This document shows, piece by piece, positions 21,933 through 31,196 of a DNA stretch of 64,000 nucleotides. How positions within the stretch are numbered: position 1 is the stretch's first letter; each line of letters begins with the position of its first letter. Below the pieces are notes generated by a model. The model ran no database searches. It saw only the letters and a list, made by a program, of their open reading frames with translations, and was not told the DNA's origin. This DNA is from Promethearchaeota archaeon (GTDB taxonomy: Archaea > Asgardarchaeota > Lokiarchaeia > Sigyniarchaeales > SOKP01). The stretch is from NCBI GenBank assembly GCA_016840085.1, contig JAEOTA010000081.1:160001-224000 (forward strand), written 5' to 3'. Both the position numbers and the translations under genes were made by a program.

Positions 21933-23771
21933 TCAAGCCAGACGATTTAATTTTTTTTTGATGAAAAAAGTTGCTTTAATAATAATATATGATACAACAG
22001 CAATTATGAAAATTATAGCTGAAATTAAAAATAAATCCGGAAAGTCCATTTCTTCGTTCATCTTTTCATAAATAGGACCTAGTCCATTATCTTCTAAAGA
22101 ATTTCCCGAAATTTTATTGAACTTACTTTCTTCTAAATATATACCATATTTAAAATTCTTATTAGCGATATTGTAAGTTAAAGTGTTATTATTGGAATAC
22201 CATAAATGAAAACCATGTTGATCATTATTATTAGCGGTGTTGTTAGTTATTGTATTATTATTAGAATAGCTGAGAAAAAAACCATTGAGATTACCCGTTG
22301 CAGTATTATTTATTAAGATATTATTATTGGAAGAACCTAGGTAAACCCCGAGATAAGTGTTATCCTTTATCTCATTACTCATCAAGGAATTATTATAGGA
22401 TGAATCGAGGGATAACCCATGCCTATTATTCGTTATGTTATTGAAAGTCAAAGTATTGAAATTGCTTGAGTTGATTGTGATTCCATTAATATTGCCAATT
22501 GCAGTATTGTCCTCTAAGCTGTTATTATAGGAATCTTTAAGAAGGAAACCATATATATTATTCTTCGCGATATTATTTTCCAATTTTCCGTGTGTCACAT
22601 TCTCTAAATAAAAACCAAAATAATTATTTAAAAAACCATTACTCACTCTTACATTTCTGATTTTAAAATAGATATCCGTGTTTTGAATATGAACTCCGTG
22701 TCCCACTGAAGCAACAATTTCATAATTTTCGATAATATAGGGATTGTTGTAAGTTCCATCACCAGAATAGTTATAAGCAACCGCTTTTTGATAAAAATCA
22801 GAATTTCCATCAACATGAATAGTATAGCTAACAATAACTTCGATTATATTCGAATCTAGTTCTTCATATTTATTAATTGCTTTTACAAAAAATTCATAAG
22901 TTCCTATAGCTAAATTATGGATGGTGTAATCTGTTGTTGTTAATCTTTCAGCTATAATTTCATTATTTTGATATAATGTATAACTATCAGCATACTTCGA
23001 AACTGTCCAGGTTAGTGTGAATGATCCATCCTCATCGAAGCCATCGACGTCTGAAAATAAAGTAAATGGTTGCGGACCGCGACCGCATATATTATCTGAA
23101 ATATTATTCCATATGCAATTTTTCTCATAAATGCAATCTATACCATTACGCAATAAAACATTTTCCGAAATTGTATTATTATTGCTATTATCTAAAAATA
23201 TACCGTATTCAATATTATCATTAGCAGTATTATTAATTAGGGAATTATTTGTGGAATACCAGATCCGAAATCCATGTAAATTGTCATTTGCAATATTACC
23301 TTCCAAGGTGTTATTATCGGAATCTTTGAAGAGGAAACTAGCGATATTATTATTAGCAGTATTGTTTATCAATTTTCCGTTAGTTATATTATTGAAATAA
23401 AATCCATGTTTATAGTTTGAAGCACCATTGCTTATGATCACATTTTTGATAATGAAATAGAGATCCGTGTTTCGAATCTCGATTCCGTGATCGTCGAAGG
23501 AGGTACTGATAATATAATTTTCAATAATGTAAGGGTTACTGAGAGTTCCATCGCCATCCCAACCCTCGCTACTTGCTTTAACAGTAAACATATTATTACC
23601 ATCAATAAAAATAGGATTATGATTTTCCGATATTTTAAGATATTCATTATTTTTCTTGTTTCTATTTGTTTGTAATATTTCGTGAGTATTGAAATAGAGT
23701 ATTGACACTATGAAAAATATACAGAAGATGAGAGTTAGTATTAAAACGTTTTTCTTTCTATTACTCATCAT
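21933..23771 (-). CDS. Membrane-anchored NosD/CASH parallel beta-helix surface protein with a central Fn3-like domain
   Basis: N- and C-terminal TM segments; duplicated GDGT..NPYIIENY unit; G.L..S.NN.L..N.A..N repeats; LTW...ADSY.LY...Y.F.VKA.N. Confidence 0.85.
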   Translation of the reverse strand: MMSNRKKNVLILTLIFCIFFIVSILYFNTHEILQTNRNKKNNEYLKISENHNPIFIDGNNMFTVKASSEGWDGDGTLSNPYIIENYIISTSFDDHGIEIRNTDLYFIIKNVIISNGASNYKHGFYFNNITNGKLINNTANNNIASFLFKDSDNNTLEGNIANDNLHGFRIWYSTNNSLINNTANDNIEYGIFLDNSNNNTISENVLLRNGIDCIYEKNCIWNNISDNICGRGPQPFTLFSDVDGFDEDGSFTLTWTVSKYADSYTLYQNNEIIAERLTTTDYTIHNLAIGTYEFFVKAINKYEELDSNIIEVIVSYTIHVDGNSDFYQKAVAYNYSGDGTYNNPYIIENYEIVASVGHGVHIQNTDIYFKIRNVRVSNGFLNNYFGFYLENVTHGKLENNIAKNNIYGFLLKDSYNNSLEDNTAIGNINGITINSSNFNTLTFNNITNNRHGLSLDSSYNNSLMSNEIKDNTYLGVYLGSSNNNILINNTATGNLNGFFLSYSNNNTITNNTANNNDQHGFHLWYSNNNTLTYNIANKNFKYGIYLEESKFNKISGNSLEDNGLGPIYEKMNEEMDFPDLFLISAIIFIIAVVSYIIIKATFFIKKKLNRLA

Positions 23772-25017: not shown

Positions 25018-25526
25018 ATGGATAGGCAAAGAATATTAAGAGAAGCCCAAAAATTGCCTTAAAATTTTCATTTTGGATGGTTTCAGGGAACATTGCTCAC
25101 TTATATGGACATATGTATGAAATACCTGAAAAAAAATATGAATTAGTAATAAAATTTGGCGAGAATTTCCCAAATCCCCCTCCTAAACTAGTGGATCATG
25201 ATGAAATAAAGAGAGTATTAGGGGATTTTCAATTAAAAAATATAACAAATTGGGCTCCTGAGAAAGCTGTAATTGATATTATTGAAGAACTTAATATGAA
25301 AATTCAAGAAACATTAGAAATGCCAAAAGAAGAGTTGATTTCACCAAAAACCGAGGAATATATCACTCCTGATTTAAATGCATATCCCCCAGATGCCGAG
25401 TTGAATAAATATCTTACTCCCTCTTATACTGAAAATGAATTTTTCTAAGATAAACCGCCAGAGATTTCTGATCTTCATTTAACTGAAAATTCCATAAATG
25501 AATCAAAAACTATACCACGAGAGTGA
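25018..25526 (+). pseudogene. Diverged 5' copy of the RWD-repeat RING gene
   Basis: MDRQRILREAQK, then a 1-nt frameshift, then FSFWMVSGNIAHLYG...EEYITPDLN; TAA at 25446 replaces Tyr; matches 29544 to about 30065. Confidence 0.92.
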
Positions 25527-25527
25527 A

Positions 25528-25800
25528 AGTGTATTAGTAATTTTAGATTCAGATCATTCAAAGAATCATGTTCTTACAGAATTAAAAATCTATAGTAAGA
25601 TTGTGACTATAGGTAGTTATATCATTGTAGAAGATTTAAATATTAATGGAGATCCCATTTTACCTTAATTTGGTCCGAGTCCTATGGAAGCTATCAAGGA
25701 ATTTTTGAAAGATAATAATAATTTTATAATTGATAAATCCAAGGAAAAATTTTTTATAACCTTCTTTTCTCCAAATGGTTATCTTAAAAGAATAAAATAA
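25528..25800 (+). pseudogene. 3' remnant of a CmcI/rhamnosyl O-methyltransferase-family gene
   Basis: VLVILDSDHSKNHVLTELKIYSKIVTIGSYIIVED...*FGPSPMEAIKEFL...IDKSKEKFFITF.SPNGYLKRIK; internal stop at 25666. Confidence 0.8.
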
Positions 25801-29543: not shown

Positions 29544-31196
29544 ATGGATACACAAAGAATATTAAAAGAAGCCCAAAAACTCGCTGCAAGGTTTTCTTTT
29601 TGGATGGTCTCAGGAAATATCACTCACTTATATGGATATATGTATGAGACTGCTGGAAAAAAATATGAATTAGAAATAAAATTTGATGAAAATTTTCCAG
29701 ATTCTCCTCCTCAATTCTTATATCATAATGAAATTAAAGAATTACTTGGCGATTTTCAATTAGAAAAAATATCAAATTGGAGTCCTGAATTCGCCGTAGT
29801 TGAAATTGTTGAAGAACTTAAAATGAAAATTCAAGAGATATTACAATCTCCTAAAGAAGAGTTGATTTCACCAGAAACTGAGGAATATATCACTCCTGAT
29901 TTAAATGTATATCCTCCAGATGTAAAATTTGATGAATATGTTACACCTTCATATTCTGATGATGATTTTTTTTATGAGGAGCCACCAGATACTAGTTCTC
30001 AAGATATTCCAGATTTTAATTCGACTGAAAATTCTAAAATAGAGTCAAAAATTACACCGAAAGAACCAATCTTTAAGGAACCTGAATCGATGAGTATAGC
30101 TCTAAACACTGAATTAGGTTTAATTCAGCAAGAATATGCTTATGACCAAAGAAGTTCGAAAGAAGCAGATATTAATGTGTATATGACAATTACTCTAACA
30201 AAAACATTTAATATTTCAATAGATTTTGTAAATTATCCTGAAAGACCAATAATTGTTTTCCCTGAAGAGATCGGACATCTACTGGGAGATCCTTATAAGA
30301 CTTTAAACTCATTAAAGTCATGGGATTCTAAAGAACCGTTACATATTGTAGACATTTTACATGAATTAGAAAAAAAATTGCATTTCATTAAAGAGATAGA
30401 AACTCAAACTAAAAAAATTTCAGGAGAATATGAATGTGAAACTGTTTCAGATAGTTTAACCAAATTGAAGGTGCATTTATTAACATATGGTTTCAAAGAT
30501 TATACTATGGATATAGATTTAGAGTCATATCCTAAAGCTCCTATTATAAACCTATCTCCTGAATTGCAACAAATTATTCCTCTCCCACTAACAGAACTAA
30601 ACTCCCATAAAAATTGGAGAGAAGAAGAATCCGAGCCCGTTGAAATTGTTAGAGAAATATCTTGGTTAGTTGATAAATTTTCAAGAATTAACTTCGAAAT
30701 TGATTTATTGAAAGACCATTATAAGAATATGAAATACGATACCGAGACTTCAACGTTAAATGTGGATATGAAAGGTAAAATGAAGACTCAAGATCTCACT
30801 TTTGAATTTCAAATTAATTTACCTTTAGAATATCCTATGAAGATGCCTGAAATAAAAGTTGTAAATGAATTTGAATTAGAGGCACATGAAAAAATTAAAG
30901 AAGATTTACACACATCTTTTGATGATTTCTTTGATGAATGGACGCCTTTTAGCTATCTCATTGACTTATTTAATTTGATTTCAAAGAAAATTTTTGAAGT
31001 ATCAGTTGTCTCATGTGTAATATGCCATAAAATAGAATGTCCAAGTTGTACAAAAAAAATTGGTGGTGATGATAGTTGCCATGCGGAGTGTCCTTACTGC
31101 GAAAAACAATATCATCTTCACTGTTGGCAGCAAACTATTAAATCTTTTGGCAAATGTGGCTTTTGCCTTAAAGCTCCTCCTCCAAGTATGATGTAA
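29544..31196 (+). CDS. Four RWD/UBC-like (E2-fold) repeats plus a C-terminal C4HC3 RING; putative E3 ubiquitin ligase
   Basis: Four (F/Y)PxxxP-type motifs after beta strands (ENFPDSPP, NYPERP, SYPKAP, EYPMKMP); C-terminal CVICH..CPSC..CPYC-x4-H-x2-CW..CGFC. Confidence 0.75.
   Translation: MDTQRILKEAQKLAARFSFWMVSGNITHLYGYMYETAGKKYELEIKFDENFPDSPPQFLYHNEIKELLGDFQLEKISNWSPEFAVVEIVEELKMKIQEILQSPKEELISPETEEYITPDLNVYPPDVKFDEYVTPSYSDDDFFYEEPPDTSSQDIPDFNSTENSKIESKITPKEPIFKEPESMSIALNTELGLIQQEYAYDQRSSKEADINVYMTITLTKTFNISIDFVNYPERPIIVFPEEIGHLLGDPYKTLNSLKSWDSKEPLHIVDILHELEKKLHFIKEIETQTKKISGEYECETVSDSLTKLKVHLLTYGFKDYTMDIDLESYPKAPIINLSPELQQIIPLPLTELNSHKNWREEESEPVEIVREISWLVDKFSRINFEIDLLKDHYKNMKYDTETSTLNVDMKGKMKTQDLTFEFQINLPLEYPMKMPEIKVVNEFELEAHEKIKEDLHTSFDDFFDEWTPFSYLIDLFNLISKKIFEVSVVSCVICHKIECPSCTKKIGGDDSCHAECPYCEKQYHLHCWQQTIKSFGKCGFCLKAPPPSMM

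Follow-up and report, generated by a model that had tools for sequence, protein, structure and literature searches.

A gene in the window analysed here (the whole 64,000-nucleotide stretch of contig JAEOTA010000081.1 of a Promethearchaeota archaeon) encodes a 550-aa protein, P0001, which, judging from its sequence and structural models, is likely to be an E3 of the Asgard ubiquitin system, with a RING set on four dead E2-fold (UEV/RWD) domains in a row. From the N- to the C-terminus, P0001 comprises four UBC/RWD-like units, with an acidic linker between units 1 and 2, and a final C4HC3 zinc domain (Table 1). FANCL, the E3 of the Fanconi anaemia core complex, consists of an ELF domain, a double RWD domain and a C4HC3 RING (PDB 7kzp_L, 9a0j_L, 3k1l, and 3zqs). 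The domain order of P0001 is that of FANCL, and the protein is therefore probably a ubiquitin ligase. A homologue search identified >320 full-length homologues sharing 58-74% identity, and the AF2 models of P0001 gave pLDDT values of 82.5 and 89.4. Our literature search found no paper describing a four-pseudo-E2 plus RING architecture, and P0001 is probably an undescribed archaeal ubiquitin ligase candidate. For Asgard archaea, 'an RWD-like domain' is all that Tromer et al. 2019 (PMC6601020) mention, and Hatano et al. 2022 (PMC9192718) counted RWD/UBC InterPro matches as E2.

Table 1. Features of the P0001 gene and of its broken copy in the window.
Feature	Position	Strand	Residues (aa)	Basis
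Broken, diverged 5' copy of the P0001 gene (unit 1 and linker) with in-frame stops	25019..25545	+		translation
Whole gene, P0001 (stop codon included)	29544..31196	+	550 aa	ORF call
Unit 1, UEV-like pseudo-E2	29544..29855	+	1-104	UQ_con, VIA, hhalign, model
Acidic, Pro-rich disordered linker	29856..30083	+	105-180	pLDDT under 50
Conserved short linear motif EEYITPDLNxYPPD within the linker	29880..29924	+	113-127	conservation
Unit 2, RWD/UBC-like fold	30090..30383	+	183-280	model secondary structure, hhalign
Unit 3, RWD/UBC-like fold	30384..30668	+	281-375	model secondary structure, hhalign
Unit 4, RWD/UBC-like fold	30669..31007	+	376-488	Pfam RWD, family profile, VIA
Three-zinc RING finger	31008..31178	+	489-545	profile matches, ligand pattern, covariation
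Conserved Pro-rich tail PPPSMM	31176..31193	+		alignment

All four units carry a (Y/F)PxxxP turn after the meander, i.e. YELEIKFDENFPDSPP (aa 41-56), FNISIDFVNYPERP (aa 222-235), YTMDIDLESYPKAP (aa 320-333), and FEFQINLPLEYPMKMP (aa 420-435), and the motif prolines P232, P330, and P431 are invariant in an alignment of 67 sequences. The earlier note had recognized four repeats by these motifs, and the units are indeed mutually homologous in hhalign profile-profile comparisons (95.7-99.4%, E 9e-9 to 4e-21). In P0001, two Pfam models exceed their curated thresholds, UQ_con with 42.3 bits (cut-off, 27) and RWD with 28.5 bits (cut-off, 22.8), and an NCBIfam search returned no matches. The models show the alpha/beta UBC fold, in which a 3-4-strand meander lies between an N-terminal helix and C-terminal helices. 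Units 1 and 4 superpose on E2, TSG101 UEV, and RWD structures (RWDD1, GCN2, and RNF25) with VIA Z values of 10.5-12.3 and rmsd of 2.2-3 A over ~100-110 residues, as expected from the UBC/RWD fold that had been proposed for the repeats.

Unit 1 is the most E2-like of the four. It matches Pfam UQ_con (7e-11, residues 37-106) and a Plasmodium E2 (VIA Z 11.9, 97 aa at 2.2 A), is modelled with pLDDT 90-97, and aligns with the lineage's own E2 (hhalign E 2.6e-5) with the catalytic-Cys loop deleted. Unit 4 is the most divergent; it matches Pfam RWD (1.8e-6, residues 388-478) and gives VIA Z values of 12.3 for RWDD1, 11.6 for the GCN2 RWD, 11.0-11.1 for the RNF25 RWD, and about 11 for E2s, and in its region the family profile matched E2 chains at 1e-5. 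Units 2 and 3 are assigned the UBC fold from their model secondary structure and their homology to units 1 and 4 by hhalign (U1-U2, 99.2%; U2-U3, 99.4%). The last helix of unit 3 (365-390) continues into unit 4 in the style of double-RWD modules, and the two units together resemble the Knl1 tandem RWD (VIA Z 10.0-10.3, 170-178 aa at 3.4-3.8 A). As stated in the earlier note, neither HPN nor a catalytic Cys, the marks of an active E2, is found in any of the four units, which thus cannot carry ubiquitin as a thioester; P0001 has only one Cys beyond its zinc domain, the non-conserved C298. Sequence profiles and models place the units in the non-catalytic RWD/UEV branch of the UBC superfamily.

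The linker after unit 1 is acidic, Pro-rich, and disordered, in agreement with the first description, and its length differs by about 45 residues among homologues (alignment A1). It contains a short linear motif in which P118, D119, Y123, and P124 are invariant, and T117, L120, N121, P125, and D126 are conserved in at least 90%, among 20 homologues; any function of this motif is putative. At the other end, many members, beta-helix-RING relatives among them, have a PPPxhh tail after the RING.

The zinc domain contains CVIC(H) (491-495), CPSC (499-502), C512, CPYC (516-519), H524, H526, C527-W528, and CGFC (538-541). Its core C4HC3 ligands are C491 and C494, C516 and C519, H524 and C527, and C538 and C541, with the spacing C-x2-C-x21-C-x2-C-x4-H-x2-C-x10-C-x2-C and all eight ligands of a RING in place. 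Among 67 sequences, C491, C494, C519, H524, C527, C538, and C541 are invariant, and C516 is conserved in at least 97%. An inserted zinc site is predicted, with C499, C502, C512, and H526 as its ligands. The CPxC pair (499 and 502) and C512 are jointly absent in four members of the wider family, in which the core ligands are invariant or, for C516, nearly so, and the insert covaries with residue 526; this joint loss identifies CVIC as the first RING pair and CPSC as the inserted site. The Cys/His pattern described in the earlier note was thus correct, but its ligand assignment, in which CVIC was the extra pair, has to be reversed.

By profile, the domain is RING-like, as had been supposed, with a predicted cross-brace. 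The family zinc profile matched, among PDB entries, the RINGs of RCHY1 (1.6e-6), RNF4 (4.5e-6), APC11 (1.2e-4), Rbx2 (3e-4), and Rbx1 (3e-3), as well as those of Arkadia and HRD1. In Pfam searches with 30 family zinc domains, Prok-RING_1 was matched by 19 (best 4.4e-8), zf-RING_2 by 12, and zf-rbx1 by 9; with 39 family proteins, Prok-RING_1 was matched by 24 (best 3.8e-6). P0001 alone lies under the cut-offs of all Pfam RING models (zf-RING_2, 0.039; Prok-RING_1, E 0.5-0.6 and about 10.5 bits, the cut-off being 29.1), and some family members match PHD, C1, and Rubicon-homology zinc models. In 27 of the 30 members, I, L, or V precedes the second Cys (I493 in P0001), and in 25 the sixth ligand is followed by W (W528); these two positions are the usual E2-contact sites in RING-E2 complexes. 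Their conservation is suggestive of E2 recruitment, which is predicted here from sequence. Prediction of a RING-E2 complex (RING alignment A5, three Zn, and E2 alignment A7) gave a median score of 0.35, compared with 0.22 for a single control, a difference that carries no weight either way for binding. In the close family, the last zinc pair is CGFC in place of the usual CPxC, and a Leu directly follows the last Cys in place of the usual Arg/Lys.

Within its genus, the P0001 gene is flanked by a glycosylation island and ileS, with no adjoining ubiquitin genes. The genus-level neighbours are ileS (conserved), glycosyltransferases, rml genes, and a gene for a LAGLIDADG protein, and these neighbours are uninformative on the function of P0001. 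The broken copy lies upstream of the rmlACBD genes, and roughly 80% of its positions are identical to those of 29544-30080 in a DNA alignment. A beta-helix protein encoded at 21933-23771 has no RING and is a membrane-anchored surface protein.

Relatives of P0001 are linked to ubiquitin genes. A 351-aa relative, P0164 (phmmer E 5e-22), which has three units and a minimal RING, is encoded by the first gene of an operon with genes for ubiquitin, E1 (ThiF), E2 (UQ_con), JAB, and a second RING, and this operon was found on three contigs that derive from different samples. Short relatives (350-430 aa in length) contain exactly three units and a RING; five other three-unit relatives (P0153, P0190, P0132, P0203, and P0165) are on short contigs or in uninformative contexts. 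In the same genome as P0001, a JAMM/JAB deubiquitinase is fused to a P0001-type unit, which ties the unit to ubiquitin handling, and such an RWD-JAB fusion is present in 29 of the 61 genomes of the class. P0001-type zinc domains (46-54% identity) are fused in other proteins to NosD/beta-helix and LRR modules, which are likely target-binding modules; such recurrence is as expected of a modular E3 domain. Besides the RWD-JAB, beta-helix-RING, and LRR-RING proteins, vWA-RING relatives were also observed.

The lineage encodes ubiquitin-like proteins, one of which ends in GG plus one residue, as well as E1 and E2. In this assembly, the eukaryote-type E1 gene and the sole canonical E2 gene are each broken up by 30 inserted nt that contain TAA, and the E2 gene has a further insertion, of 1 nt, at its start; relatives carry 2-4 E2 genes that are intact. 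With E1 and the only E2 interrupted in the assembly, a working cascade in the organism is not assured. The possibility that the 30-nt insertions are BHB introns was considered and rejected: each contains a hairpin, the folds are non-significant (z -1.3 and -1.7), and there is no clear bulge-helix-bulge.

Among solved structures, the best Foldseek match to P0001 was FANCL (E 1.1e-8; 403 columns against the 370-aa chain, over its whole length), BRE was the second best (6gvw_C; E 3.5e-8, 376 columns), and Ltn1/LTN1 chains also ranked high (E 1e-5 over about 197 columns), so that the three proteins named in the earlier note are the closest solved structures. All three are E3s or scaffolds of ubiquitin complexes with a similar build, in keeping with an E3 role of P0001. 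Residues 181-550 are colinear with whole FANCL chains, one extra unit and the linker lying N-terminal to this region in P0001. FANCL also ranked top in an Atlas structure search and was the first named family, after the protein's own clusters, in a language-model feature search (score 0.89). Units 2 and 3 fit the models of FANCL d2 and d3 (171-177 aa at 3.6 A), and units 3 and 4 fit the FANCL DRWD (3zqs_B; VIA Z 10.1, 178 aa at 6.8 A), with an ambiguous register in these two-domain fits because all P0001 units are alike. These rankings, the equal domain order, and the C4HC3 RING would suit a true FANCL orthologue, which would, like FANCL with UBE2T as E2 and FANCD2/FANCI as substrates, monoubiquitinate a DNA-bound clamp in DNA-damage repair. 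A UBC-fold array with a RING of any origin, however, would select FANCL as its top match, and we consider such orthology highly improbable. Global TM values to the solved-structure matches are 0.2-0.3 (0.27-0.29 to FANCL, at an rmsd of about 27 A). Pfam FANCL_d1 was matched marginally by 2 of the 39 family proteins (best E 0.0063), FANCL_d2, FANCL_d3, and FANCL_C were absent from the 25 families listed, and P0001 itself had no Pfam FANCL match at E up to 10. P0001 also has four units instead of three, an Rbx1-like third zinc site, and a RING tentatively placed in the Prok-RING_1 family, and its locus offers no DNA-repair context. The 'prototype' of FANCL-type ligases put forward in the earlier note is therefore conjectural. 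Homology in a wider sense, in which eukaryotic FANCL, and perhaps BRE and the listerin RWD modules, would be truly homologous to the P0001 family and its three-unit relatives, is tentative and on balance doubtful. In a profile search with A3, which was directed at eukaryotic relatives, the 120 matches listed were family members only.

The second-best match raises the question of a non-catalytic protein. In the BRISC and BRCA1-A deubiquitinase complexes, BRE/BRCC45 serves as a tandem-UEV scaffold (PDB 6gvw_C and 6h3c_C). It is also the best, though weak, PDB sequence match, on unit 1, and Pfam BRE matched 6 of the 39 members below the cut-off (best 0.0014). P0001 could accordingly be a scaffold or ubiquitin reader, its zinc domain being a PHD-like or zinc-ribbon binding module and its pseudo-E2 units binding ubiquitin or organizing a complex, e.g. 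with the RWD-JAB deubiquitinase. The PHD, C1, and Rubicon-homology matches, the fusion of a P0001-type unit to JAB in the same genome, and the intact state of the P0001 gene in an assembly whose E1 and E2 genes look broken are consistent with such a role. BRE itself, however, has no zinc domain, and in P0001 this domain has active RING-H2 E3s as its best profile matches, retains the E2-contact positions, and recurs on beta-helix and LRR proteins in the manner of a catalytic module, all of which makes a scaffold unlikely. A listerin-like quality-control ligase, which would bind the large ribosomal subunit through unit 4 and the RING, as Ltn1 does through its RWD-RING end, and mark stalled nascent chains, appears less probable by far. 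In addition to the Foldseek matches, unit 4 plus the RING is similar to this part of Ltn1 (VIA Z 9.3-9.7 over 155-156 aa), Pfam UBC_like (listerin-type) matched 19 of the 39 members, and ileS, a very weak hint, is a conserved neighbour; but the rmsd is 6.3-6.6 A, the likeness is confined to a generic RWD-RING pair, and P0001 has neither a HEAT-repeat body nor an N-terminal ribosome- or NEMF-binding domain.

If P0001 is a RING E3 on a dead-E2 array, its C-terminal three-zinc RING would recruit a ubiquitin-charged E2 through I493 and W528. Units 2-4 may together make a rigid pseudo-E2 scaffold like that of FANCL, on which the substrate, ubiquitin, or both are held beside the RING. Unit 1, a UEV on a long acidic linker with TPDLNxYPPD, might serve as a mobile arm for binding either ubiquitin or a partner protein, or might be an arm with an autoregulatory role.

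No known prokaryotes are more closely related to eukaryotes than Asgard archaea, and, to our knowledge, the E3s reported to date for the Asgard ubiquitin system are small, simple RING proteins. A Lokiarchaeial protein that is widely conserved and has four pseudo-E2 units and an Rbx1-like three-zinc RING suggests that complex eukaryote-style E3 architectures are already present in these archaea. P0001 may provide a tractable prokaryotic model of how arrays of UEV/RWD domains bring substrates or ubiquitin close to a RING, and, together with its RWD-JAB, beta-helix-RING, LRR-RING, and vWA-RING relatives, it brings a modular archaeal ubiquitin toolkit into view. The family is also a concrete candidate for the origin of FANCL-type ligases. 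If the homology were true, the 'pseudo-E2 array plus RING' design would be Asgard-born, inherited by eukaryotes, and recruited there to DNA repair, and the tethered UEV of unit 1 would make P0001 a self-contained machine that holds the acceptor ubiquitin while the RING delivers the donor ubiquitin.

In both P0001 and FANCL, consecutive Cys-less UBC-like folds lead up to a C4HC3 RING at the C-terminus, and the three-unit relatives are the size of FANCL. P0001 differs in having four units, the first of which is carried on a disordered linker of roughly 75 residues, whereas FANCL has three; in its RING, which has an inserted third zinc site and putative Prok-RING_1 kin, whereas that of FANCL belongs to FANCL_C; and in its domain packing, as reflected in the TM values above, at an identity of 10-13%. 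BRE shares with P0001 the tandem inactive E2 folds with a YPxxPP...W pattern and a link of such folds to a JAMM deubiquitinase, which in the archaeon is made by gene fusion. BRE works as a subunit of a deubiquitinase complex rather than as a ligase and has no RING or zinc domain, whereas P0001 has a RING. Ltn1 and RNF25 contain a single RWD and canonical two-zinc RINGs, in contrast to the four units and three-zinc RING of P0001, and the long HEAT-repeat body of Ltn1 has no counterpart in the 550 aa of P0001.

The zinc domain itself resembles Rbx1, Rbx2, and APC11 in its layout, C-x2-C ... CxxC ... C ... C-x2-C-x4-H-x-H-C ... C-x2-C, with an extra zinc site in the first loop, presumably equivalent to that of Rbx1, and a His placed between the fifth and sixth ligands. 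The Prok-RING_1 family (PF14446) was reportedly defined by Burroughs, Iyer and Aravind in 2011. P0001 lacks the cullin-binding N-terminal strand of Rbx-type RINGs, and its RING is fused directly to the presumed substrate-binding array, whereas an Rbx-type RING is a separate subunit. Archaeal ubiquitin operons of Caldiarchaeum and Asgard archaea encode small RING E3s (PMC5654768; bioRxiv 10.1101/2023.07.25.550441), and the architecture of a pseudo-E2 array plus RING is unmentioned in these two reports. Those E3s have no pseudo-E2 arrays, in contrast to the four units of P0001; what is probably shared is the E1-E2-RING system, and the operon of P0164 encodes a second RING beside its own pseudo-E2 protein.

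The ORF for P0001, the candidate RING E3, is solitary, with AT-rich spacers of 255 bp on its 5′ side and 400 bp on its 3′ side, in a window corresponding to C78:160001-224000 of a 4.68-Mb assembly (G+C 24-33%). The rmlA-C-B-D genes lie on one side and the isoleucyl-tRNA synthetase gene on the other, and no functional context was found in this gene neighbourhood. The product contains the four units (aa 1-104, 183-280, 281-375, and 376-488), the linker, and the C4HC3 zinc pattern described in the earlier note. A partial copy of the gene, containing in-frame stops, is located directly upstream of rmlACBD; it suggests recombination along the border of a variable glycosylation island.

Pfam searches with P0001 detected UQ_con (7e-11) and RWD (1.8e-6), both exceeding the curated cut-offs. 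In an AlphaFold2 model built from 67 sequences (mean pLDDT 82.5), two ordered segments (residues 1-104 and 181-550) flank a disordered one (residues 105-180); a second model, of residues 181-550, reached a pLDDT of 89.4 and a pTM of 0.71. Each unit is modelled as a helix followed by a 3-4-strand meander and further helices. Profile-profile comparisons among the units gave probabilities of 95.7-99.4%, which identifies the units as true internal duplicates, with units 1-3 closest to one another and unit 4 the most diverged. Units 1 and 4 superpose rigidly on E2s and the TSG101 UEV, as well as on the RWD domains of RWDD1, GCN2, and RNF25 (Z 10.5-12.3, rmsd 2.2-3 Å). The Pfam matches, models, and superpositions bear out the earlier reading of the repeats as RWD/E2 folds. 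HPN and a catalytic Cys are absent from all four units; when unit 1 is aligned with the lineage's own E2, the catalytic-Cys loop is deleted. The linker varies in length, but the TPDLNxYPPD motif inside it is nearly invariant. This motif and the C-terminal PPPSMM might occupy UEV-type grooves as docking or autoinhibitory peptides; neither is docked in the predicted model.

Zinc-ligand conservation was assessed in 67 sequences, including 3-unit relatives at 21-45% identity. C491, C494, C519, H524, C527, C538, and C541 are invariant and C516 is nearly so, whereas C499, C502, and C512 are jointly absent from four members. Where the CxxC insert is present (26 domains), position 526 is occupied by His or Cys in 25; the four domains that lack the insert have Ala, Asn, Arg, or Gly there. 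These patterns argue for a C4HC3 RING core (predicted ligand pairs C491, C494/C516, C519/H524, C527/C538, C541) with a predicted third zinc site (C499, C502, C512, and H526) inserted in its first loop, the arrangement found in Rbx1 and APC11. The domain profile matches RING-H2 fingers of genuine E3s (RCHY1, the best quoted, at 1.6e-6; also RNF4, Arkadia, APC11, Rbx2, HRD1, and Rbx1), in agreement with the proposed RING identity of the C-terminus. Pfam assigned Prok-RING_1 to 19 of 30 members, zf-RING_2 to 12, and zf-rbx1 to 9. The positions at which RINGs usually contact E2 are conserved: the residue preceding the second Cys is I, L, or V, and the sixth ligand is followed by Trp.

Features of the P0001 gene, its own genome (contigs C), and extracted loci (L)
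Feature	Location	Strand	Remark
550-residue ORF	29544..31196	+	reading frame intact
TPDLNxYPPD, Pro-rich, in disordered linker	29880-29924		basis: conservation
PPPSMM, Pro-rich, after RING	31176-31193		basis: conservation
Broken, diverged gene copy, first ~170 codons (unit 1 + linker)	25019-25545	+	DNA roughly 80% identical
Only canonical E2	C78:52530-52988, L001:1501-1959		in-frame 30-nt insertion with TAA + small hairpin
Eukaryote-type E1	C78:55673-56923, L009:1192-2800		in-frame 30-nt insertion with TAA + small hairpin
Three ubiquitin-like ORFs	C25:5910-6101 (L003), C18:1928-2104 (L004), C67:8489-8665 (L005)
221-aa protein, one UBC/RWD-like unit (type of units 1-3) + Prok-JAB/JAMM	C43:22669-23334, L024:1492-2157	+	HxHPx6Sx2D
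599-aa protein, N-terminal UBC/RWD-like units, C-terminal part resembling ABC-ATPase	C47, L023:430-2229	-
ORF overlapping 599-aa gene	L023:2162-3202	-	putative Walker A + ABC-signature motifs
393-aa protein, vWA (Ssl1-like), then two RING/PHD-like fingers	C68, L026:1201-2382	-
Operon: 3-unit pseudo-E2-RING protein, ubiquitin (97 aa), E1 (414 aa), E2 (181 aa), JAB (335 aa), second RING (323-339 aa)	L037:3923-9083, L038:1165-6325		metagenome contigs
P0145, behind Roadblock/LC7 gene + 90-aa orphan gene	L041:6226-8305		GCA_019058315.1 contig

P0001 has >320 full-length relatives at 58-74% identity. Every one comes from an Asgard (Promethearchaeota) assembly or metagenome, and the annotation reads 'hypothetical protein' or, by JGI, 'ubiquitin-protein ligase'. 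Across 301 genomes from the phylum, strong matches over nearly the full length were found in about 43 of the 69 genomes of its own family and, within the same class, in one genome from each of three sister families; in other genomes, matches were weak and confined to one- or two-unit pieces. This distribution makes the Thor, Odin, Hod, and Hermod labels carried by some NCBI records (65-70% identity) look doubtful. No description of the four-pseudo-E2 plus RING architecture was found in the searchable literature.

The gene contexts and fusions of relatives bear on function. The relative P0164 (351 residues, phmmer E 5e-22) combines three units with a minimal RING; on three contigs from different samples, its gene is the first of an operon that also includes ubiquitin, E1, E2, JAB deubiquitinase, and second RING genes. 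P0145, of a coiled-coil, 3-unit, and RING subgroup, lies in a Roadblock operon with Arf/Ras-like GTPase genes nearby. Of the 61 genomes of the class, 29 encode the unit-JAB fusion, which parallels the eukaryotic BRE-BRCC36 pairing, the archaeal version being a gene fusion. The zinc domain also recurs at the C-termini of beta-helix, LRR, and vWA proteins. Its three-zinc form (43-54% identical) ends P0170, P0171, P0174, P0177, and P0184 (beta-helix/NosD) and P0197 (LRR) of other assemblies, and the beta-helix proteins share the PPPxhh tail; these proteins suggest that candidate archaeal E3s form a modular family whose target-binding parts differ. Together, these observations place P0001 in the ubiquitin system and give the zinc domain the look of a portable, putative ligase module, and the proposed RING E3 ligase is supported in its architecture and probable role.

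In its own assembly, the E1 and E2 genes share a contig with the P0001 ORF, 105 kb upstream of it. Their 30-nt insertions may represent decay, assembly error, or removable inserts; at codon 2-3, E2 carries a further insertion, of 1 nt, a TnpB-like gene adjoins E1, and both genes have intact orthologues elsewhere in the genus. Among the three ubiquitin-like ORFs, one terminates in ...TQAGG followed by a single additional residue (Ile) and would therefore need processing; the other two are extended by acidic residues at the N-terminus and finish with ...PASTAG. The C-terminal part of the 599-aa protein has no Pfam match, and its relative P0207 has a weak ABC_tran match; the layout of the 393-aa protein recalls TFIIH p44/Ssl1.

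Foldseek against the PDB recovered as top matches all three proteins named for comparison in the earlier note: human FANCL (7kzp_L, E 1.1e-8, 403 columns against a 370-residue chain), BRE/BRCC45 (3.5e-8), and, after further FANCL chains, Ltn1/LTN1 (1e-5, about 197 columns). Below these came fly FANCL at 8e-5 and then the double-RWD of FANCL at 4e-4; double RWDs from Knl1, CENP-O, and Mediator were next, ahead of single E2s. Two-unit pieces fit better than the whole chain: units 3+4 matched the Knl1 tandem RWD (Z 10.0-10.3, 3.4-3.8 Å) and the FANCL DRWD (Z 10.1, 6.8 Å), and units 2+3 matched FANCL d2+d3 models (3.6 Å, 171-177 residues). In a language-model search, eukaryotic FANCL clusters (0.89) came first behind P0001's own, followed by listerin and RNF25-like proteins; the FANCL signal is nearly absent from sequence models, FANCL_d1 being marginal in 2 of 39 members. 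To our knowledge, no protein of solved structure other than FANCL has three UBC folds together with a RING, and FANCL would therefore top any query combining a UBC array with a RING. For this reason, we keep likeness and kinship apart: P0001 is built like FANCL, and a relationship to FANCL is a candidate reading. Global TM in the PDB comparison was only 0.23-0.29; thus, the matches have their domain order, but not their packing, in common with P0001.
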